Of a DNA stretch of 64,000 nt, positions 2,238-63,059 are shown in pieces. The notes beneath the pieces are model-generated. The model did no database searches. It was not told the origin of the DNA and saw nothing but the letters and a program-made list of their open reading frames with translations. Location of the stretch: the NCBI GenBank assembly GCA_018896525.1, contig JAHIMR010000096.1:55462-119461 (forward strand), in the 5' to 3' direction. Numbering within the stretch: the stretch's first letter is position 1; every line of letters begins with the position of its first letter. Made by a program: the position numbers and the translations under genes. Origin of the DNA: Actinomycetota bacterium. GTDB lineage: Bacteria; Actinomycetota; Geothermincolia; Fen-727; Anoxymicrobiaceae.

Positions 2238-3953
2238 ATGGCAGCAGTACCCAGTGACATCGAGATTGCGCAGGCCGCGAAGCTGAAGCCGATTACCGAG
2301 ATCGCGAAAGAGATAGGGCTCCAGGAAGATGACCTGGAGCTTTACGGGAAGTACAAGGCCAAGGTCAATCTGAATGTTGTAGACAGGATAAAGAACAACC
2401 CAACCGCCAAGTACATCGACGTCACCGCCATCACCCCCACGCCTCTCGGCGAGGGCAAGACGGTGACCTCCATCGGCCTCGACGAGGCGCTGAACAGAAT
2501 AGGCAAGAACGCGATAATCTGCATCCGTGAGCCCAGCATGGGCCCGGTGTTCGGTATCAAGGGAGGCGCCGCCGGCGGGGGATACAGCCAGGTGGTCCCC
2601 ATGGAGGACATCAACCTCCACTTCACCGGCGATATCCACGCGATAGGTGCCGCGAACAACCTGCTGGCGGCGTACATAGACACCAGCGTCCTGCTCAAGA
2701 ACCCGTTGAACATCGACCCGTTGACAATATCCTGGCGCAGGGTCGTGGACATCAGCGACCGCGCGCTGCGAGATGTCGTGGTGGGCCTGGGCGGAAGGGC
2801 CAACGGCTACCCGCGCCAGACCGGTTTCGATATAACCGTCGCGTCCGAGGTAATGGCGATCCTGGCGCTCGCCGACGGCCTGGAGGACCTGAAGGAGCGC
2901 CTGAACCGCATAGTGGTGGCGTACACCTACGAGGGCAAGCCGGTCACCGCCAAGGACCTCAAATGCTCCGGGGCGATGGCGGCCCTGCTCAAGGACGCCA
3001 TTAACCCCAACCTGATACAGACCCTGGAGGGCAACGCCTGCTTCATGCACGCCGGCCCGTTCGCCAATATCGCCCAGGGGAACAGCTCGGTGGTGGCCGA
3101 CATAATCGCCACCAAGCTGGCGGATTACGTGGTCACCGAGAGCGGTTTCGGCGCCGACTGCGGGGCCGAGAAGATGATGGACATCAAGGTCCGGGCCATG
3201 GAGAAGTACGGAATTCGCCCCGACTGCGTGGTCATCACCACCACCATCAGGGCGCTCAAGATGCACGGCGGCGCGTTCCCGGCGGTACCGGGCAGGCCCA
3301 TCCCCGAGGACGTGCAGGCCAAGGAGAACTACGGGGCCCTGGAAGAGGGAAGCGACAACATGGTCAAGCATATCGAGAACATGAAGCTGTTCGGCATCCC
3401 GGTGGTGGTCACCATCAACCGCAGGACCTCTGACCGTGACAAGGAAGTCGAGATGGTACACGATATCGCCTTGAAGGCGGGGGCGGACTTCTGTGAGCCC
3501 ATCGACGTGTGGGCAAAGGGGGGCGAGGGTGGCATCGCCGCGGCCGAGGCCCTGGTCAAGGCTTGCGAGCTGCCCAGTGACTTCAAGTACCTCTACAGCG
3601 ACGACGACTCGATCAAGGAGAAGATAGAGAAGGTCGCCACCAGGATATACGGCGCGGACGGCGTCGATTACTCACCGGTTGCCGAGGCCTCGATCAAGCG
3701 CCTCAACGACGGGGGTTTCGACAAACTGCCGTTGTGCATGGCCAAGACCCATCTCTCGCTTTCTCACGACCCGACCAAGAAGGGCCGCCCCACCGGCTGG
3801 CGCCTGCCCATCCGGGATATCCGTCCCTCTGTCGGCGCAGGGTTCATCTTCCCGCTCTGTGGGGACATGAAGACCATGCCGGGCCTTCCCACCACACCGG
3901 CCGGCAATGCGGTAGATGTCGAGGCGGACGGCAGGATAGTAGGCCTTTTCTAA
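2238..3953 (+). CDS. fhs: Formate--tetrahydrofolate ligase
   Basis: 571 aa. Motifs ITPTPLGEGKTVTSIGL and MHGGAF, with a typical FTHFS C-terminus. RBS AGGAGG lies upstream. Confidence 0.95.
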   Translation: MAAVPSDIEIAQAAKLKPITEIAKEIGLQEDDLELYGKYKAKVNLNVVDRIKNNPTAKYIDVTAITPTPLGEGKTVTSIGLDEALNRIGKNAIICIREPSMGPVFGIKGGAAGGGYSQVVPMEDINLHFTGDIHAIGAANNLLAAYIDTSVLLKNPLNIDPLTISWRRVVDISDRALRDVVVGLGGRANGYPRQTGFDITVASEVMAILALADGLEDLKERLNRIVVAYTYEGKPVTAKDLKCSGAMAALLKDAINPNLIQTLEGNACFMHAGPFANIAQGNSSVVADIIATKLADYVVTESGFGADCGAEKMMDIKVRAMEKYGIRPDCVVITTTIRALKMHGGAFPAVPGRPIPEDVQAKENYGALEEGSDNMVKHIENMKLFGIPVVVTINRRTSDRDKEVEMVHDIALKAGADFCEPIDVWAKGGEGGIAAAEALVKACELPSDFKYLYSDDDSIKEKIEKVATRIYGADGVDYSPVAEASIKRLNDGGFDKLPLCMAKTHLSLSHDPTKKGRPTGWRLPIRDIRPSVGAGFIFPLCGDMKTMPGLPTTPAGNAVDVEADGRIVGLF

Positions 3954-6003: not shown

Positions 6004-6773
6004 GTACGGTTATTGCCATCTCCGGCAAGGGTGGCACCGGAAAGACCACCTTCGCCGCCCTGGGCGTGAGGTACCTCCTGGAGGAGGGCCTGGGGCCGGT
6101 CCTGGCGGTGGACGCGGACTCCAACAGCAACCTGGACATGGCCCTGGGGATCGACCTCACCTCCACCATAGGCGCGGTCAGGGAGGACCTGAGCGAGAAG
6201 GTCCAGAAGCGGCAGTTACCGGCCGGTATGCCCAAGCAGGACCTGCTGGAGATGCAGATCGAGCAGGCGCTGGTGGAGACGAAGGAGTTCGACCTGATGA
6301 GCATGGGCCGGGCGGAGGGCCCCGGATGCTACTGCGCCATTAACAACATGCTAAGGGTTTTCCTGGACCGCCTTGTTGAGAACTACCGGTTCGTGGTCAT
6401 AGATAACGAGGCGGGAATGGAGCACCTGAGCCGCCGCACCGCGCGGGGGGTGGACATGATGTTCGTGATGAGCGACCAGTCACGGCGCGGCCTGGAGACG
6501 GCGGTCCGCATCAAGGACCTGGCCCGGGAAATGAAGCTGGAGATAAGGAAGGTGTTCCTGGTGGTGTCACGGGTAACGATGCCCGTGGAGGGTGATCTGG
6601 AGAGGTCTATAGAGAGCACCGGCATGGAGTTGGCGGGAATCATTCCCGAGGACGACCGGGTGGGTCGGCTGGACCTGGCGGGAGAGCCGCTGGTCGGACT
6701 GGCCAGGGACTCGCAGGCTTCCGTGGCGGTGCGAAACATAATGGAGAGCGTGCTCCAGGGGGTGATGTGCTAA
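6000..6773 (+). CDS. cooC: CODH/ACS nickel-insertion accessory ATPase (CooC/AcsF family)
   Basis: Deviant Walker A AISGKGGTGKTT and the CxC-type metal motif GPGCYCA. The TTG start overlaps the upstream TGA. Confidence 0.85.
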   Translation: MSTVIAISGKGGTGKTTFAALGVRYLLEEGLGPVLAVDADSNSNLDMALGIDLTSTIGAVREDLSEKVQKRQLPAGMPKQDLLEMQIEQALVETKEFDLMSMGRAEGPGCYCAINNMLRVFLDRLVENYRFVVIDNEAGMEHLSRRTARGVDMMFVMSDQSRRGLETAVRIKDLAREMKLEIRKVFLVVSRVTMPVEGDLERSIESTGMELAGIIPEDDRVGRLDLAGEPLVGLARDSQASVAVRNIMESVLQGVMC

Positions 6774-24879: not shown

Positions 24880-25590
24880 ATGATCGATAACCGGGCGTAC
24901 CGGGGGGTAATGGAACCTGAGGGACTCGACTGCTACCGGGTGGTCATCGGTGAGAGTGACCTCTACATCTGTACTGAAGGTGAGTGGAAGTCCCGGGCCC
25001 GCGAATCACTGGCGGAGCGCAGGAGGGAGCTGGAAGAGTACCTGGAGAGTCATCCCTCTTTCGGCATGAGCTTCAAGCCGGTTCCCGCTACCGGTGACGC
25101 GCCCGGTATAGTCGAGGAGATGGCACGGGCGGCCTCCGTTTTCGATGTCGGCCCCATGGCTTCGGTCGCGGGGGCTATCGCACAGAGAGTGGGGCGCGAC
25201 CTCCTGAACCTCTCGAGCCAGGTGATAGTGGAGAATGGCGGCGATATTTTCATGGCAGGCGGCCGCAAGCGAAGAGTCCGGGTGTTCGCCGGGGAGGGGG
25301 CGCCGGCCATCGACATAAAGCTCGCCTGTTCGCCCGGGGGGATGGGCCTCTGCACGTCCAGTGCCACCGTGGGCCCGTCGGTATCGCTGGGGGCGGCGGA
25401 CGCGGTGGCCGTGCTCGCGCAGACAGCCACGCTCGCCGACGCCGCGGCAAGCGCGTTCGGTAATATGGTCAACTCGACGGAGGAGATCGGGGACGTCCTT
25501 ACCGGGGCGTCCGAACACGCCGAGGTCCTGGGCATCGTCGTGGTGGCGGGGGGTTCCGTTGGCGTATGGGGTGGGCTGGAGATAGCTTGA
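24880..25590 (+). CDS. UPF0280 / ApbE-superfamily-like protein (function unknown)
   Basis: 236 aa. YRV.IGESDL.I ... GPMA.VAGAIA ... ENGGDIF pattern as I recall for UPF0280 proteins. Assignment from memory of the family pattern only. Confidence 0.5.
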   Translation: MIDNRAYRGVMEPEGLDCYRVVIGESDLYICTEGEWKSRARESLAERRRELEEYLESHPSFGMSFKPVPATGDAPGIVEEMARAASVFDVGPMASVAGAIAQRVGRDLLNLSSQVIVENGGDIFMAGGRKRRVRVFAGEGAPAIDIKLACSPGGMGLCTSSATVGPSVSLGAADAVAVLAQTATLADAAASAFGNMVNSTEEIGDVLTGASEHAEVLGIVVVAGGSVGVWGGLEIA

Positions 25591-25709
25591 CCTACCGGAC
25601 TGTCGGTGGCTGCTGGTACGATTAGATATATTCACAATGACCGTAAAGGGTTTCAACAGTTGAAATAATCATAGACATAATATGTTATATCATGTAATAT
25701 ATAGCCACA

Positions 25710-26300
25710 ATGAAGTTATCAGAATGGGCCAGAAAACAGAACGTGTCCTACAGGACCGCATGGCGCTGGTTCCACGAGGGAAGGCTTCCCGTCCGAGCCG
25801 AACAGGTCGGTGAAGGGAAGACCATTCTCGTCTTTGAAGACGAATCCGGACCTGCTTACGATGAGAGCGTAGTTATTTACTGCCGTGTATCCGGTCACGA
25901 CCGGAAGGATGACCTGGGGAGGCAGACCGAAAGGTTGAAGTCCTTCGCCTCGGCAAAAGGCTGGCCGGTCAAACAGGTTGTCGAAGAGATCGGCTCCGGG
26001 CTCAACGGCAAGAGGACGAAGCTCTTGAAGCTCCTCTCCAGCCCGGAAGTGGGGAGAATAATCGTCGAGAACCCCGACCGCCTGGCGCGCTTCGGTTTCG
26101 AGTTTATAGAGGCCGCAATGATGTCACAGGGCAGGAGTATCATAGTAGCAGATGAGACGGAAGAGACAGCGGACATATGGGCCGACTTCATTGACGTGGT
26201 GACATCCATGTGCGAGAGAATTTACGGCAAGCGAGGAGCACGCGACAGGGCGAGGAAAGTTCTGGACACGCTGAAGAGCGAGGACAAGGAAACCAAATGA
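25710..26300 (+). CDS. tnpA: IS607-family serine recombinase transposase (MerR-like HTH + resolvase catalytic domain)
   Basis: MKLSEWARKQNVSYRTAWRWFHEGRLP (HTH) followed by VVIYCRVSGHDRKDDLGRQ (catalytic Ser context). Clear paralog of the 61057..61569 protein. Confidence 0.9.
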   Translation: MKLSEWARKQNVSYRTAWRWFHEGRLPVRAEQVGEGKTILVFEDESGPAYDESVVIYCRVSGHDRKDDLGRQTERLKSFASAKGWPVKQVVEEIGSGLNGKRTKLLKLLSSPEVGRIIVENPDRLARFGFEFIEAAMMSQGRSIIVADETEETADIWADFIDVVTSMCERIYGKRGARDRARKVLDTLKSEDKETK

Positions 26301-26785
26301 TGAGATTTGACGTAAGGCTAACTGAACTCATAACGTTAATCAGGGGAACGTTTGCTAACGAGAGCATTTACCTGACCTGCCGCCCATTGAAACAAGGGGA
26401 GGCACAGCACCCCTCCACGTTCGCCGCCGATAACATCACAGACCTGGATATCTGGACGCTTCTCATGCAAGCGAAGATCTGCTCGGGAAACATCGACGCC
26501 GTAGCATTGGTCTTGCGCATATTTCGAAACGAGAAAACACATATTCAGAATGAAGAGGGAGTAAGGGTCGAAGTCCCCTACAAAGACCTCTACATGTTTC
26601 TCGCAGAAGAAGCCGGAGTGACTGGCTTTGACCTTCAAACAACTCTCGATATGCACTGCACCTACGCCCCATCGGGCGAACCCATATCCCCCGAGCCGGC
26701 CGTTAATTATAAGGCGTCGATCGACCTATTGACAGAGGCCGGATACCAGCCAAGAATGATGATACAAGAGAAGAAGGAGCCGTGA
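26297..26785 (+). CDS. Hypothetical 162-aa protein with RNxxxH (HEPN-like) motif, encoded between tnpA and the tnpB-like gene
   Basis: The ATG overlaps the tnpA stop (ATGA), and its stop overlaps the next start. Helical-looking sequence with LRIFRNEKTHI (R77-x4-H82; nt 26525-26542). No other recognisable domain. Confidence 0.6.
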   Translation: MMRFDVRLTELITLIRGTFANESIYLTCRPLKQGEAQHPSTFAADNITDLDIWTLLMQAKICSGNIDAVALVLRIFRNEKTHIQNEEGVRVEVPYKDLYMFLAEEAGVTGFDLQTTLDMHCTYAPSGEPISPEPAVNYKASIDLLTEAGYQPRMMIQEKKEP

Positions 26786-28347
26786 TGGCCGTCAGTAGTA
26801 ACGGTTCTGTGACAAGGGCTTACGATTATCGTCTGCCCAGAGAGATTCAAAAGGACTGCCTGCGGACCCTGGGCCTCGTACTGCCCATCGAGAATGACCT
26901 ACTCGAATCCCTATGGTCGGAGAGCTTTCTGGAACAGCTCGGCTTGACGTGCGACACGAAGTACGTCTGGAAGTGGCTGGAGCCCAGGATGGAAAGGCCC
27001 GAAGGCCTTCCGTCACGCATATGGAGAGGCATACTGGAACAGGTCGGAAGGATACTCAAGGCACAGGCGGTCAGGCTCGACCTGTTCCGCTTTCTCAAGT
27101 CCATAACCACCAACGAGCAGGAGTGGTGCTGGCAGCTCTGCCGGGACAACGGCAAACCTTTCGTCAAGGCGAACCACATATACTCGATAAAAGAGGCTGT
27201 CTGCCGGTACAGGTGCAAGAACGCGGGCAAGTTCCCCGAGAGATACTTCGACATCACGGGTTGCCCCAGACTGAGGAACGGCATCATTACCTACGCCCCC
27301 GACGACGGACAGGCGATACGCTACGACCTGGAGGGAACCACCTTCAAGGTCCGACTGAAAGTAATTGACGAAGAAGGCACCTGGACCTGGAGGGAGACGT
27401 CATTCGAGCTTCCCGGCATCGTTCTCGAACGGCTGGGGGACGGGACCATGAGGTCTCCCGACCTCAGGTGCAAAGACGGCAAGGCATTCCTCGATTTGAA
27501 GGTGGAGTCCAAGAACAGCGGCGCCCGCGATAATTGCCCGCGCAACAAGCTGTTCGCGGACTGGGGGACCACCAGGAAGCTACTGGCTATCATAGCCGTC
27601 ACCCCCGGGGGTGCCCAGATGGGTCCCCCGATCTTCTTGAAGTACGAAGGTGTCTTCGGGAAGCTCCATCGAATCAGGCAGCATATCGACCACTTGAAGA
27701 AGGCAAGGGCCAAGGTCGCCAGGAGGAAAGACAGGCGGCGTTGGGACAGGTACACGGCCCTGATAGGACAGGCATGGAGTAAGTACCATGAGCTACAGAA
27801 GGAGCTGGCGCACCTCGCCTCCAACGCCCTGGTGGACATAGCAGAAGCGTACGGTTGCGACGCAATCTACGTGGAAGACCTCTCCACGTGTAAGTCAAAG
27901 AACTTCAGCAGGAAACTCAACAGGATAATCAATAACACCGTTCGATCGCAGATCTATAACAAGGTGGCGTACAAGGGAAAGCTGAAGGGCCTGAGCCTCC
28001 ACTACGTAAAGGCGTGGTGGACCTCCCAGACGTGTCCCTTGACAGGTGTTCGAGGAAAGAGATTTACGGCCCCCGATGGCATCCGGCGCGCGGGAGGCGG
28101 CTGGTTCATCTCTGAGGCCTGCTCTTTGGACGCTGATTATGTGGCCTGCAAGAACCTGGCTCGAAGAGCCTTGTTTGATTTCTCACTCAACAGAGCAAAA
28201 GCCCTTGCCTACAAGGAGAGGGCTACTCTTGCCAAGCAGTTCAGGCAAGGCACTGGAGGGCTACGGAATCTGCGGAAGGCTCTCTCCGGATGGAACTACG
28301 GCGTCAAGATAGTGCCCGGTTCTGTTTTCTATCCGTTGAGGGCTTGA
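26782..28347 (+). CDS. Enlarged TnpB/Cas12-like RuvC nuclease (521 aa) with degenerate zinc finger
   Basis: TnpB-like N-terminus TRAYDYRLP. RuvC-I LFADWG (D260, nt 27559-27561), RuvC-II AIYVEDL (E365), KLNRII...YKGK..G...V..WWTSQTC, and RuvC-III LDADYVACKNL (D452). The usual CxxC...CxxC is replaced by CPLTG...EAC. Confidence 0.8.
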   Translation: MMAVSSNGSVTRAYDYRLPREIQKDCLRTLGLVLPIENDLLESLWSESFLEQLGLTCDTKYVWKWLEPRMERPEGLPSRIWRGILEQVGRILKAQAVRLDLFRFLKSITTNEQEWCWQLCRDNGKPFVKANHIYSIKEAVCRYRCKNAGKFPERYFDITGCPRLRNGIITYAPDDGQAIRYDLEGTTFKVRLKVIDEEGTWTWRETSFELPGIVLERLGDGTMRSPDLRCKDGKAFLDLKVESKNSGARDNCPRNKLFADWGTTRKLLAIIAVTPGGAQMGPPIFLKYEGVFGKLHRIRQHIDHLKKARAKVARRKDRRRWDRYTALIGQAWSKYHELQKELAHLASNALVDIAEAYGCDAIYVEDLSTCKSKNFSRKLNRIINNTVRSQIYNKVAYKGKLKGLSLHYVKAWWTSQTCPLTGVRGKRFTAPDGIRRAGGGWFISEACSLDADYVACKNLARRALFDFSLNRAKALAYKERATLAKQFRQGTGGLRNLRKALSGWNYGVKIVPGSVFYPLRA

Positions 28348-28482
28348 CGTGGTGAACGTGGGTGTTGTGGAACAGATGTACACATTTGTTGAACGGTTTA
28401 ACGCATGTCGCCGACGAAGATATTAAGCGATAAGTACGATTTGAACGGAACCTGGTGACGCACGGTAAGGGCGGGTAATGGT

Positions 28483-29118
28483 TTGAACGGGCAAAGGTAT
28501 GCGGGCGGGAATGGGTCATGGCCGAACTCCCAGTGGGTGCCACCACCGGGGCCGTACGGAATGCCACCCGGAATGCCACCTATGGCGCCGATTCCGCCAC
28601 CGGAGCAACCCCGGATAAGGCCGGGGCTCATACGGTGGCTCTGCCTGTCCCTTATCCCGTTCGTCGCCTTGTTAGTACTGTTCCTCCTGCTGTTTGTTGT
28701 CGGGAGACCGTACGTTGTTGACGGGCAGTCGATGATGCCGACGCTGCTGGACGGCGACAGGGTCTTCGTGGTGCCTTACCGTGGAAACACAACAGAGGAC
28801 AGGGGGGACATTGTCGTCGTCAAGTGTGTGACCGGGATGCAGGAGTTGTTGATAAAGCGTGTTGTGGCGATATCCGGGGACAGGATCAAGTCCGGTGACG
28901 GCAAGATCGTCGTGAACGATACTTTCATATACAAGGACACCAACGGGTCTGGTTCCGAGGAGTACGACACCCTGGTGCCGGACGGGCACGTATTCGTGAT
29001 GGGAGATAACGAGAGCAACTCATTCGACAGCCGGTCTTTCGGGCCTGTTCCGAAGAGCGATATCATCGGGAAGGCAATGTTCATTTTCTGGCCGCCGGGA
29101 GACATCAAGAGCTTATAG
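28483..29118 (+). CDS. lepB: Signal peptidase I
   Basis: VDGQSMMPTL (catalytic Ser), LIKRVVAISGD (catalytic Lys box) and GDNESNSFDSRSFGPV. The start is uncertain: TTG 28483 gives a Pro-rich 48-aa extension, with alternatives GTG 28537 and ATG 28561. Confidence 0.85.
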   Translation: MNGQRYAGGNGSWPNSQWVPPPGPYGMPPGMPPMAPIPPPEQPRIRPGLIRWLCLSLIPFVALLVLFLLLFVVGRPYVVDGQSMMPTLLDGDRVFVVPYRGNTTEDRGDIVVVKCVTGMQELLIKRVVAISGDRIKSGDGKIVVNDTFIYKDTNGSGSEEYDTLVPDGHVFVMGDNESNSFDSRSFGPVPKSDIIGKAMFIFWPPGDIKSL

Positions 29119-29167
29119 CTCAAAGGCCAGGGAACCTCGGGAAGGGCGGAGTCAAAGAAAGCTGTTT

Positions 29168-29572
29168 TCAGGTCCCGGTTTTTATCCCTACCTCCTTCCC
29201 CTTGAGGACCATGTATCTCACGATTGTAGTGATAAGACCAACAAATCCTACTCCAGCAATGGATATCCCCAATATTATAAATGGTTGTGCTTCCAACAAC
29301 AGAAGCATAACAATACCAACAATTAGAAAGACCATGCAGATAATCGTGTTTTGCAGTTCGATCCTGTACGGTTGCCCGAGGTCCCTTTCACTCAACTCGA
29401 GAAACTTTTGCAAAATTACGGAAAACACCACGTACCTGTATTCAGGCCGTTCGGGATTCGGGCTTATCCTTTCTATCCGTACCCGCTCCCCTTTCCGGAA
29501 AGCGAGCTCACCCTTAATATGAATATTCTTTTTGATACTACCAAGATCTCCCGGACTGAGTGTTTTCCTCAT
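29168..29572 (-). CDS. Hypothetical membrane protein (2 predicted TM helices at the C-terminus)
   Basis: 134-aa ORF in a visibly AT-richer patch. Hydrophobic stretches MVFLIVGIVMLLLL and FIILGISIAGVGFVGLITTIV. No family recognised. Confidence 0.45.
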   Translation of the reverse strand: MRKTLSPGDLGSIKKNIHIKGELAFRKGERVRIERISPNPERPEYRYVVFSVILQKFLELSERDLGQPYRIELQNTIICMVFLIVGIVMLLLLEAQPFIILGISIAGVGFVGLITTIVRYMVLKGKEVGIKTGT

Positions 29573-29715
29573 TTCATCCCATTTTCCAATTGGCTTTTCC
29601 CATATCTTCCTCTTGACCCATATGTTACCACCATCTTGAGCACCGCTCCAGGTTCAGGTTGGAGCGGCTGCCTTGCGGCGGCGTTCTGTTATCATATCGG
29701 GGAAAGTGACCATGA

Positions 29716-34002: not shown

Positions 34003-34084
34003 AAAAACGCAACAATGGTGCCAGGCACCAGACGTGCAAAACGCAACAATGGTGCCAGGCACCAGACGTGCAAAACGCAACAAG
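34003..34084 (+). repeat. Tandem (34-bp period, ~2.3 units) REP-like hairpin repeat ACGCAACAATGGTGCCAGGCACCAGACGTGCAAA
   Basis: Direct reading of the sequence. The same unit occurs at 387-459 and a variant at 24801-24835. The core GGTGCCAGGCACC is palindromic. Confidence 0.8.
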
Positions 34085-51942: not shown

Positions 51943-52445
51943 GTGGGGACGGGGCGATGATAGAGGGCAGGGCCCACAGGCTGGAAGACCATGTGAACAC
52001 GGATCTCATCATACCGGCCACATACCTGGTGGCGTCCGACCCGGCCGAGCTGGGGGAGCACCTGTTGGAAGGCCATGACCCCGAGTTCAAGTCACGGGTG
52101 AGGCCGGGCGACATCATCGTGGCCGGCGAGAACTTCGGCACCGGCTCCAGCCGGGAGCACGCCCCGCTGGCGATAAAGGGCGCCGGCATCGCCTGCGTAA
52201 TCGCAAGTTCGTTTGCCCGGATCTTCTTCAGGAACGCCATCAACGTGGGGCTCCCGATACTGGAATCGCCTGATGCGGTCAAGGTTACCGGAGAGGGGGA
52301 CCGGATCAGGGTTGACCTGGCGGCCGGGACAATCGAGAACCTGACCACGGGGGACACGTTCACTGTCCCGGCGTACCCGGAGTTCATGCGCCGCATCGTG
52401 GACGAGGGCGGGCTGATAAAGTACGTGATGAGCAAGGATTCGTAG
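51939..52445 (+). CDS. leuD: 3-isopropylmalate dehydratase small subunit
   Basis: VNTDLIIPA..., GENFGTGSSREHAP. The ATG overlaps the leuC TGA. Confidence 0.9.
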   Translation: MSGDGAMIEGRAHRLEDHVNTDLIIPATYLVASDPAELGEHLLEGHDPEFKSRVRPGDIIVAGENFGTGSSREHAPLAIKGAGIACVIASSFARIFFRNAINVGLPILESPDAVKVTGEGDRIRVDLAAGTIENLTTGDTFTVPAYPEFMRRIVDEGGLIKYVMSKDS

Positions 52446-52573
52446 CGCCGGCACCTTGCCGGCATCCGCGGGGAACGTAGCGCCGGCACCTTGCCGGCAT
52501 CCGCGGGGAACGTAGCGCCGGCACCTTGCCGGCATCCGCGGGGAACGTAGCGCCGGCACCCTGCCGGCATCCG
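52441..52573 (+). repeat. Tandem 35-bp hairpin repeat (3.8 units of CGTAGCGCCGGCACCTTGCCGGCATCCGCGGGGAA)
   Basis: Unit starts at 52441, 52476, 52511 and 52546. Each contains the hairpin GCCGGCA-CCT-TGCCGGC. The first unit includes the leuD TAG stop. Confidence 0.9.
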
Positions 52574-58481: not shown

Positions 58482-58550
58482 TGGTGGCGCATAGGGGATT
58501 TGAACCCCTGTTACCGCCTTGAGAGGGCGGCGTCCTAAACCAGGCTAGAC
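58482..58550 (-). pseudogene. Truncated tRNA-Glu copy (3' 69 nt, lacks a 5' acceptor strand)
   Basis: 66/69 identical to 62982-63050. The sequence where nt 1-9 should be (CGAGGTGTG) cannot pair with the 3' strand ATGCGCC. Confidence 0.75.
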
Positions 58551-58796
58551 CACACCTCGTTGTTTCCCAGTCTAACGCCTTTCCATGCCATCCACCGCTG
58601 GTTTCACCGGTAAAAACACACCCGCCTTGCATGATCCTTGCAGGACAATATTAGGGATCCTGCAACCTGCCCGAAGGGACAAAATCGCGCTAGAATATCA
58701 CTGTTAGGGGAGGCATATGGGGAATACCGGGTAAAGATATCTATCCGTGTGTCGATACCCTTAACAGGAGGGCCGTTATGCAAGGGGGATAAGGTC

Positions 58797-59722: not shown

Positions 59723-59856
59723 CCGTTCCTCAGAATGATGACAAATGCGCCATCTCTCCTGATTGACGTTTCTCAGGCGTCCGCCTCTCGGAAACGAGAG
59801 GTCTTACGTCCCCTCCACGTCCGTTTACCCTCTCCGTCGAACTGACGGCGAGCAAT
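59723..59856 (-). ncRNA. Candidate omega-RNA (reRNA) scaffold overlapping the tnpB 3' end
   Basis: By analogy with characterised TnpB systems, the guide RNA scaffold spans the 3' end of tnpB to the IS right end. The segment has the hairpin CCTCTCG-GAAA-CGAGAGG and is duplicated as a solo copy at 62525-62658. Confidence 0.45.
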
Positions 59857-61007
59857 CGTATGTTTTCAGATGCGTTGTCGTCCCTGTCCGCTGTGTGCCC
59901 GCCGGAGTCGCACACAAACACACGGTCGGACAGCGTGAGGTCCTCCTTGACCCACCCGCACTTGGAGCACGGCTTGGAGGTGGCCTCAAAGCGGGGGACC
60001 ACCACCAGATCGATGCCGTACCAGTAGCACTTGTAGGCAAGTTGCCTCCGGAACTCACGCATGGAGGAGTCGGCAACGGCACGGGCGAGCCTCCTGTTCT
60101 TCATCATGCCGGACACGTTCAGGTCCTCGACGCCGATCACGTACGGCCTCTCAGACGGCGGCTTGGCTTTCGCCACTATCCGTGAGGTCGCCTTGTGTAC
60201 GGCGTCTGAGCGCACGCGGGATATCCGCATGTGCTGCCTGGCTATTCTTTTCCTGGTCTTCTCCCGACGATTTGAGCCTTTCTCCTGGCGGGACAGCTTC
60301 TTCTGGAGACGGGATAGCTTCTTCGCGCCCGTATAGAGCGCCTTCGGGTTCTCGCAGTGAGTGTGGTTGTCGTTGCCATGCGAGCAGACAGCCAGCGTCT
60401 TCACCCCGAGGTCTACACCTGTGGGAGGGCCTGTCGCTTCTTCTACCTCCATCTCCTGTTCTACCTGGAGGCTTACGAACCACCTGCCGGCGCGCTCGGA
60501 GACGGTCGCGGAGAGAACGTGAACGCCGGGGGTGCCGTCTGCCGGCAGGTATCCCTTCTCCTTCAGCCTTGTCCAGCCCAGGCAGGGGAGCTTCACCCGC
60601 CTGGCTTCCACGTGTATGGAACCGGTGAGGCGGAAGGAGCCCAGGCCCCGCCTGCGACTCTTGAAGCGCGGGAAGCCCACCTTGCCCTTGAGCTTTCCTT
60701 TCTTCTTCTCTTTCGCCCTCCGGTAGAAGTGGGTGAAGGCCCTGTCCAGGTCCCGGAGCGCCTCCTGGGGGGCGCACTTGGAGACCTCGTAGAGCCAGGG
60801 GAACTCCGTCTTCTTGAGGGCGTTCAGCTCGCGGTGGAGTTCAATAGCGTTTGGGGACCTCCCGGTGAGGCGGTAGCTCTCACTCTTTCGCGCAAGCCCC
60901 CAGTTGTAGGCGAAGCGGGCGGCGCCCGCGTGGTTTGCCAGGGCCTTCTCCTGTGTCCTGTTGGGCTTGAGCTCCGTCTTGTAGGCCCGCTTAGTCTTCA
61001 GGGTCAC
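59730..61007 (-). CDS. tnpB: TnpB (IS605 OrfB-family RNA-guided RuvC nuclease), canonical
   Basis: KRAYKTELKPN.TQ N-terminus. RuvC-I GVDLGVK, RuvC-II VIGVEDLNV, Zn finger TSKPCSKCG...FVCDSGGHTADRDDNASENI (RuvC-III). GTG start. Confidence 0.92.
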   Translation of the reverse strand: MTLKTKRAYKTELKPNRTQEKALANHAGAARFAYNWGLARKSESYRLTGRSPNAIELHRELNALKKTEFPWLYEVSKCAPQEALRDLDRAFTHFYRRAKEKKKGKLKGKVGFPRFKSRRRGLGSFRLTGSIHVEARRVKLPCLGWTRLKEKGYLPADGTPGVHVLSATVSERAGRWFVSLQVEQEMEVEEATGPPTGVDLGVKTLAVCSHGNDNHTHCENPKALYTGAKKLSRLQKKLSRQEKGSNRREKTRKRIARQHMRISRVRSDAVHKATSRIVAKAKPPSERPYVIGVEDLNVSGMMKNRRLARAVADSSMREFRRQLAYKCYWYGIDLVVVPRFEATSKPCSKCGWVKEDLTLSDRVFVCDSGGHTADRDDNASENIRLLAVSSTERVNGRGGDVRPLVSERRTPEKRQSGEMAHLSSF

Positions 61008-61056
61008 TCACCGCCTCTACCGCTTTCTTTGCCCTGTTCCTCGCGCCGCGCTTCCC

Positions 61057-61569
61057 CTAGATCCTCGCGCACATTGAGGTAACCACGTCTATGAAGTCGG
61101 CCCACATGTCTGCCATCTCCTCAGTATCATCGGCAACTATGATACTCCTGCCCTGTGACACCATTGCGGCCTCTATATACTCGAAGCCGAAGCGGGCCAG
61201 CCGGTCTTTGTGCTCCACCAGGATCCGACCGACTTCGGGGGTTTGCAGCAACCCCGTGAGCTTTCTTTTGCGGCCATTCAAGCCCGAGCCTATCTCCTCC
61301 ACCACCTGACCAACCTTCCACCCGTTTGCCGCGGCATAATCCTTGAGCCGCGAGACCTGGCGACCCATGTCTTCCTTTTGGTCGTGAGAGGATACACGGG
61401 CGTATATCGCTACCTGGGCTGGTGGCTTCATCCTGAGGGCTTCTTCGTAGACGAGAATCGTGCCTGTTTCCAACTGTTCTGCTCTCGCCGGAAGCGTACC
61501 ATCGTGATACCAGCGAAGAGCGGTCCTGTAGGATATCCCGTTCTTGCTTGCCCATGCAGACAGTTTCAT
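61057..61569 (-). CDS. tnpA: IS607-family serine recombinase transposase (C-terminal tail cut off by an in-frame TAG)
   Basis: MKLSAWASKNGISYRTALRWYHDGTLP + VAIYARVSSHDQKEDMGRQ. Paralog of the 25710..26300 protein. The TAG replaces the Tyr codon of the paralog, and the downstream frame still encodes GKRGARNRAKK... Confidence 0.9.
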   Translation of the reverse strand: MKLSAWASKNGISYRTALRWYHDGTLPARAEQLETGTILVYEEALRMKPPAQVAIYARVSSHDQKEDMGRQVSRLKDYAAANGWKVGQVVEEIGSGLNGRKRKLTGLLQTPEVGRILVEHKDRLARFGFEYIEAAMVSQGRSIIVADDTEEMADMWADFIDVVTSMCARI

Positions 61570-62981: not shown

Positions 62982-63059
62982 TGGTAGCGCATAGGGGATT
63001 TGAACCCCTGTTACCGCCTTGAGAGGGCGGCGTCCTGGACCAGGCTAGACGAATGCGCC
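62982..63059 (-). tRNA. tRNA-Glu (anticodon CUC), CCA encoded
   Basis: Manual cloverleaf: acceptor GGCGCAT/ATGCGCT (G1.U72), anticodon stem CCGCC/GGCGG with loop CUCUCAA, T arm AGGGG-TTCAAAT-CCCCT, discriminator A, CCA. Confidence 0.85.

Follow-up and report, generated by a model that had tools for sequence, protein, structure and literature searches.

A 64-kb stretch of DNA (the window, throughout) from a Geothermincolia-like actinobacterial metagenome-assembled genome carries, at 26782-28347 on the + strand, a gene for a TnpB-like protein with an intact nuclease active site and a degenerate zinc site, and the question it raises is what such a protein does. This gene comes third, after a serine-recombinase tnpA and an orphan gene, orfX, in a translationally coupled set within a 2,748-bp element of the IS607 family of insertion sequences (25649-28396, +). 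The element is composed of a GG core, a left end (LE), tnpA, orfX, tnpB, an omega-RNA region and a right end (RE) that closes on GG, and its neighbours are an ApbE-like gene on one side and lepB on the other. Judging from the sequence, we consider it likely that the open reading frame (ORF) encodes the TnpB (OMEGA) RNA-guided endonuclease of this autonomous insertion sequence, and that the nuclease is active.

The gene product has 521 amino acids counted from a GTG, or 520 from the ATG at 26785, and was assigned through Pfam PF07282, an AlphaFold2 (AF2) model and Foldseek. The TNB domain (PF07282) matches residues 390-459 with 38.1 bits against a cutoff of 26.3, and this match and the intact RuvC triad identify a TnpB-family protein, as an earlier reading of the same DNA (the original prediction) had proposed. 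In our family alignment (33 sequences, 22-71% identity), the catalytic residues lie where they had been placed and are invariant in 33/33 sequences: Asp260 of RuvC-I (codon 27559-27561, +, checked in the DNA; FADWG), Glu365 of RuvC-II (27874-27876, +; YVEDL, aligned with the E of the Cas12f motif MEDL) and Asp452 of RuvC-III (28135-28137, +; DADYVACKNL, aligned with the D of Cas12f NADYNAA). The three residues align with the Cas12f and TnpB motifs, and the split RuvC with a D-E-D triad is that of the TnpB superfamily. Models for TnpB, Cas12f and Cas12u also match the protein, over residues 290-465. In the AF2 model [predicted local distance difference test (pLDDT) 81.8], a WED strand (residues 9-17) is followed by REC helices (residues 20-146), further WED strands (residues 168-244), RuvC from residue 255 and, at residues ~405-450, the small beta domain of TNB; this layout and the full-length Foldseek alignments describe a WED beta-barrel with an inserted helical REC. 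The model shows no order in the C-terminal tail (residues 478-521), yet the tail is conserved in sequence (LSGW...PLR), and part of this conservation may be an RNA constraint, because the tail is encoded by the same stretch as the candidate omega-RNA described below. The gene is under purifying selection, with ratios of nonsynonymous to synonymous substitution (dN/dS) of 0.20 between the window copy and the copy L003, 0.24 between the copies L005 and L006, and <0.1 for distant pairs.

The protein is long for a TnpB, and the extra length ahead of RuvC-I that the original prediction noted was borne out. From the first strand to RuvC-I we counted 246 residues, compared with ~180 in ISDra2 TnpB, where the RuvC-I aspartate is D191 and REC has four helices and 104 amino acids (PMC10097598). 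The interpretation given to this length fared less well. EQEWCWQLC, one of two supposed Cys- and Trp-rich insertions, is instead a part of REC that the lineage conserves (W115, W117 and C120 do not vary within the clade), and the other, CRYRC, is not conserved; a new metal site in this segment was considered and rejected, because the cysteines are conserved neither outside the clade nor, C120 apart, within it. The idea of an enlarged REC lobe on a trajectory from TnpB to Cas12 was overstated: in the AF2 model REC has six helices and ~130-140 amino acids, ~30-40 above ISDra2, with no REC2-like coiled-coil insertion, while the remaining extra length is distributed over WED, RuvC and the C-terminal tail, and the gene belongs to an ordinary IS607 transposon with tnpA and defined ends. 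Moreover, the size of ~520 amino acids is common to the whole lineage, zinc-finger-bearing members included, so that length and zinc-finger loss are independent.

The zinc site lies in the TNB domain (TSQTC418PLT421G ... S444EAC447SL; 28021-28131, +), which was located by alignment and is modelled by AF2 as small, folded strands with pLDDT 82-87. The four ligand positions are occupied by C418, T421, S444 and C447 in the window copy, which keeps one Cys per pair. Across the close clade (12 sequences), C418 does not vary, position 421 holds T, S or G, position 444 is always Ser and position 447 is C, F or Y, so that three of the four positions are no longer conserved cysteines, and the domain carries a 2-residue deletion. 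The protein has the TNB domain and lacks the CxxC...CxxC ligands that are typical of TnpB, although not universal. On this alignment, the C4 zinc site is lost across the whole clade and not just in the window copy; the original prediction was right about the lost zinc finger. All other clades of the lineage retain CPxCG...CxxC or a CxC variant, and among 131 full-length relatives only the clade of the window lacks the four cysteines, the other sequences that fail the strict pattern being CxC variants. The sister clade (~37% identity, ~520 amino acids), which is also IS607-borne, retains CPxCG...CPxC. As far as the model goes, a small clade has kept this small beta domain but exchanged its C4 zinc ribbon for a form without zinc.

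Zinc-finger loss is an already known kind of TnpB variation. The conserved zinc finger has been lost in some TnpB branches, including the clade RIIIr-4, which was judged likely active (Altae-Tran et al. 2023, PMC10691335), and what the TNB zinc ribbon does in TnpB and Cas12 has been described as still unclear (PMC10691335). RIIIr-4, which we compared by its published description, shares with the window protein the loss of the C4 zinc finger between RuvC-II and RuvC-III and a conservation that suggests activity, but its RuvC-III catalytic residue is rearranged whereas the triad here is canonical. What is particular to the present case is the combination of a canonical triad, an IS607 context, a rare Cas12f-like lineage of ~520 amino acids, a zinc-bearing sister clade and an added orphan gene.

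The zinc site also bears on whether the protein cuts DNA at all. It could still bind omega-RNA and DNA while being a weak nuclease or binding-only, and so serve, in the manner of TldR or Cas12m, as a roadblock or regulator directed by RNA, but we give this reading only a small chance. The TNB domain of Cas12 enzymes aids DNA loading into RuvC (PMC10097598), and here the domain has lost three of four zinc ligands and is two residues shorter; Cas12m structures are found among the Foldseek matches, and several copies without tnpA keep an intact tnpB. On the other side, D260, E365 and D452 are found in every member of the clade, whereas an inactivated RuvC is the defining trait of TldRs, which have also lost the transposon context; the window gene is still inside an IS607 element with tnpA and conserved ends, and no obvious regulated host gene adjoins it. 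Purifying selection on tnpB is of the same order as on tnpA, and other TnpB branches without the zinc finger, RIIIr-4 among them, are judged likely to be active (PMC10691335). We favour an active nuclease, encoded by a mobile element whose structure is described next.

To fix the ends of the element, we used L003, a copy in another metagenome contig that is 92-93% identical in nucleotide sequence across 25646-26322 and 26754-28398 and has flanks unrelated to those of the window. The homology begins near 25646-25649 and ceases at 28397-28398. By this comparison the left end begins at 25649 with GG followed by TTTCAAC..., or more fully by TTTCAACAGTTGAAAT, and the right end closes at 28396 on TTGAACGG, more fully CACATTTGTTGAACGG. 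The LE occupies 25649-25709 (+) upstream of tnpA, with the GG core at 25649-25650 and then TTTCAACAGTTGAAATAATCATA..., as aligned with L003 and with another copy, L011. An RE terminus of the form ..[AG]GAAC[GA]G is present in 9/9 relatives, the sequences diverging directly after it, and the same terminus occurs in more distant zinc-bearing relatives. GG is found at both ends, as in elements of the IS607 type. Read from the sequence, a joined RE-LE would be GTTGAAC-GG-TTTCAAC, an inverted repeat around GG, which is what a serine-recombinase core would be expected to have. The left flanks of the copies read NGGG, with G at -1 in 6/7, and the guanine-plus-cytosine (GC) fraction of the element is 0.546 against 0.625 in the flanking host DNA.

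Copies of the element occur in unrelated contexts, L003, L005, L006, L002, L012, L013 and L015 having different flanks, and across many contexts they are seen with tnpA, with a broken tnpA, or as tnpB alone. The host is taken to be Geothermincolia-like from the nearest relatives of its ApbE-like gene, and in these relatives (L016-L018) the ApbE-like gene is directly followed by lepB (and ligA) without the element. These patterns are those of a mobile IS607 element. A search for the exact empty site returned only relatives at 59-66% amino acid identity, in which the synteny is kept and the intergenic DNA is not alignable. As a separate observation, the solo-tnpB element L013 has a 12-nucleotide GGTTCTGAGCAG at the start of its LE (~1462-1473) and again directly past the RE core (3203-3214), a repeat longer than the GG core would account for.

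The 3' end of tnpB overlaps a conserved RNA structure. An RNAalifold consensus for the last 240 nucleotides before the RE in 9 elements gave a set of six helices (28186-28361) that runs over the 3' end of tnpB. A further, terminal hairpin lies past the stop codon, at ~28364-28388. In this consensus 91.5% of cells pair, compared with 35-50% when the partners are slid by 1-3 columns, and compensatory double changes are seen in 16 pairs, where the slid controls give 3-6; neither value was reached in shuffles (0/500). Helix 3, for example, is CTTGCC/GGCAAG, CTCGAC/GTCGAG, CTCCCC/GGGGAG or TCGGAC/GTCCGA across the copies, and the stems of the terminal hairpin likewise vary with their pairing kept (TGTGGA/TCCACA, GTGTAC/GTACAC, GTGGAAT/ATTCCAC). 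A permissive scan found no Rfam family in 25000-29500. The structure lies over the gene's 3' end and stops at the RE, and we propose it as a candidate omega-RNA scaffold (28186-28396, +) with the terminus ...UUGAACGG and a guide from 28397. The guide is predicted by analogy with other IS607 TnpBs, whose scaffold stops at the RE with ..CGG and whose guide is read through from the flank (10.1101/2023.11.20.567912), and its position follows from the right end as fixed with L003 and the nine relatives. The predicted guide segment would be TTTAACGCATGTCGCCGACG (28397-28416, +, with a length of 20 nucleotides assumed), the first host bases past the RE.

The first gene of the element, tnpA (25710-26300, +; 196 amino acids), encodes an IS607-type serine recombinase, with 185.6 bits against a cutoff of 110 for NCBIfam NF033518 (transpos_IS607) and an E-value of 4e-17 for Pfam Resolvase; the NF033518 score indicates the TnpA form with an N-terminal MerR-like helix-turn-helix. 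Its dN/dS against L011 is 0.11. The second gene, orfX (26297-26785, +; 162 amino acids), lies between tnpA and tnpB, its start overlapping the tnpA stop (ATGA) and its own stop overlapping the tnpB start (GTGA). Among the 5.8 billion clusters searched it has a single homologue, P0045, with 73% identity, which sits in L011 in the same gene order tnpA-orfX-tnpB as in the window; the dN/dS of orfX is 0.30. It matched no family in Pfam, NCBIfam, PHROGs or PADLOC, and its AF2 model (pLDDT 44) is too poor for a fold search. The gene has been deleted in L003, and the more distant elements L001 and L006 never had it. Conserved and translationally coupled, orfX may encode an accessory factor for an OMEGA transposon. 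A bolder reading gives the clade a zinc-independent, fully active RNA-guided nuclease for which OrfX would be a dedicated partner, serving either TnpB-omega-RNA or TnpA as subunit, chaperone or regulator, in a three-component IS607/OMEGA system, or else makes the protein a transposon-encoded Cas12f-like dimer; from the sequence features at hand we regard this as improbable.

For the preferred reading, an active TnpB of an IS607 element, we propose the following course of events. TnpA would cut at the GG core dinucleotides, release the element as a double-stranded DNA circle and reseal the donor site. A transcript through the 3' end of tnpB would fold into the omega-RNA scaffold (~28186-28396) and run into the flank, which would serve as the guide. 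The TnpB-RNA complex would then recognise a short target-adjacent motif (TAM) ending in the GG core, as the left flanks NGGG would suggest, and cut the emptied donor joint through RuvC D260/E365/D452, after which homologous repair from the sister chromosome would restore the element.

Several points weigh against this account. We infer RNA guidance, the TAM, cleavage activity and homing, and of these guidance and cleavage by homology; the match to the NCBIfam guided_TnpB model (NF040570) reaches 63.2 bits, below its cutoff of 100, and covers residues 291-462 only. Known models match the C-terminal half of the protein only. Without its zinc ribbon the protein could load substrate less well into RuvC, and a TAM cannot be derived firmly from 7 flanks. 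As for the RNA, part of the covariation falls within coding sequence and no more than 9 sequences, all related, underlie it, and the terminal hairpin of the window copy has one G-A mismatch that is absent from L003.

Simple erosion would be another explanation for the loss of the zinc site, and it is true that relatives of the element are decaying. In L003, tnpA codon 3 is TAA (L003 2411-2413) and orfX is deleted (~3023-3035); in L004 an in-frame tnpB stop lies within a small duplication, DLF*DLF (L004 ~6301-6306); in L005 tnpA is internally deleted (upstream of 6001); and in L002 the tnpB stop codon is lost (L002 7613-7635), so that the ORF reads through the RE and has 544 amino acids. We nevertheless think it very unlikely that the window gene is such a decaying or domesticated relic, left with no present role. 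The three ORFs of the window copy (tnpA, orfX and tnpB) are intact and overlapping, the dN/dS of tnpB is about 0.2 or lower, and AF2 models the TNB domain with confidence throughout. The zinc-site substitutions are common to 12 clusters at 50-70% identity, which indicates that the loss is old and has been maintained.

The closest solved structures, by both profile and fold, are those of Cas12f rather than ISDra2 TnpB. The family profile matches Cas12f with E-values of 5e-21 to 1e-18, ISDra2 TnpB with 3e-9 and Fanzor2 with 3e-4, and the full-length Foldseek matches include AsCas12f (E 5e-14), ISFba1 TnpB (E 1e-9) and ISDra2 TnpB (E 5e-6). As a group, the Cas12f structures (AsCas12f 8dzj/7wju, CnCas12f1 8hr5, OsCas12f 9nzq) are the best Foldseek matches (E 5e-14 to 1e-10 over ~485-505 aligned columns) and are similar in size and domain order, but the identity to them is only 12-16% and the TM-scores are 0.3-0.4. 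Cas12f also retains a CxxC...CxxC zinc finger in TNB (PMC10097598), and the window gene differs in being transposon-borne with tnpA, its neighbours being tnpA, orfX and lepB. This likeness, the Cas12f-like size and the occurrence of TTGAACGG three times on the + strand within 100 nucleotides, with only two others in 64 kb, could be read as the mark of an early CRISPR-like (proto-Cas12f) effector, with the RE-terminal octamers downstream as a rudimentary repeat-guide array. We hold this to be the least probable of the readings, one that could be true only by a slim chance. There is no CRISPR array and there are no cas genes in the 64-kb window; the three sites are irregularly spaced (52 and 42 nucleotides), their similarity ends at the octamer, the third overlaps the probable lepB start, and the pattern is not clearly seen in other copies.

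The octamers themselves are at 28389-28396 (the RE), 28441-28448 and 28483-28490 (the latter two in the host flank before lepB), and the two further copies are both on the opposite strand. The right flanks of L003, L007 and L012 likewise carry GA[AG]CGG-like motifs. The downstream octamers could reflect a target preference, relics of earlier insertions, or chance; that the two copies are decayed RE remnants was considered and rejected, since there is no similarity past the octamer.

Among the closest known systems, the IS607 TnpBs (CboIStron TnpB; ISFba1 TnpB, PDB 8iaz) share several features with the window element: a tnpB downstream of, and coupled to, an IS607 serine-recombinase tnpA, GG at both ends, an RE and candidate scaffold ending in ..CGG, structured RNA over the 3' end of tnpB, the WED-REC-RuvC-TNB architecture and the D-E-D triad. 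In CboIStron the GG core is required, TGGG is both the target and the TnpB TAM, and the omega-RNA scaffold ends in ..UCGG (10.1101/2023.11.20.567912). The left flanks NGGG resemble this TAM, and the candidate scaffold here would end in ..ACGG. The differences are a length ~100 amino acids above that of typical IS607 TnpBs (431 positions in the NF038280 model, 425 amino acids in the canonical copy of the window), a match of only 25 bits to the IS607_TnpB model, a sequence that hardly aligns with the canonical IS607 TnpB encoded in this genome (BLASTP E 0.03), the loss of the C4 zinc site, the addition of orfX between tnpA and tnpB, and an RNA without an Rfam match. In ISDra2 TnpB (PDB 8exa/8bf8) the domains follow in the same order, the C-terminal tail is likewise disordered and an omega-RNA lies over the 3' end of the gene, but this protein has 408 amino acids, a Y1 transposase as its partner (IS200/IS605) and a C4 zinc finger (C331, C334, C351, C354), and by the Foldseek and profile E-values given above it is much less similar.

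The lineage is rare. Relatives form 43 clusters among 5.8 billion clusters at 90% identity, of which 13 (51-100% identity) make up the zinc-less clade, and among 1.84 billion representatives at 50% we obtained 370 matches at E<=1e-3 and 21 at E<=1e-30, one of them above 50% identity. Searches of 185,579 species genomes, IMG/VR viral contigs and a phage collection gave no relative, and plasmids gave only TnpB-like genes of ~25% identity, from haloarchaea and Streptomyces. By these counts the protein does not fall into a populous clade as one ordinary member among many, which supports the original prediction. The zinc-free clade beside a zinc-bearing sister, in the same IS607 context and with the same RE/omega-RNA terminus, is a natural experiment on the zinc ribbon, in which activity, stability and metal dependence could be directly compared between the two. 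The lineage is carried by a transposon, yet its nearest match in fold is Cas12f, and it may shed light on the relation between Cas12f-like proteins and IS607 TnpBs. These findings leave the general understanding of TnpB biology as it was.

Some further features of the window were noted. Between lepB and ligA lies an ORF of 134 amino acids (29168-29572, -) without a Pfam match, for which tblastn gave no match in L016, L017 or L018; ligA follows lepB by at most ~90 bp in L016 and L017 and after a gap of ~210 bp in L018. The region 28397-29700 has a GC fraction of 0.52. Perfect or near-perfect tandem repeats of 34 nucleotides (2.4 copies, 34004-34083) and 35 nucleotides (3.8 copies, 52441-52573) were rejected as CRISPR arrays, having no spacers. 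The canonical TnpB copy to which the original prediction referred does exist, at 59730-61007 (-), with 425 amino acids and 298 bits on the guided_TnpB model. It belongs to a second IS607 element (59730-61569, -) whose TnpA has 170 amino acids and 180 bits on NF033518. The two TnpAs of the window are 68% identical and its two TnpBs barely alignable, a contrast that suggests modular exchange of tnpA and tnpB. Two tRNA-Glu(CTC) genes (58482-58558 and 62982-63059, -) bracket a stretch with a GC fraction of 0.54-0.58 that holds the second element, and this low-GC stretch may be an integrated island.

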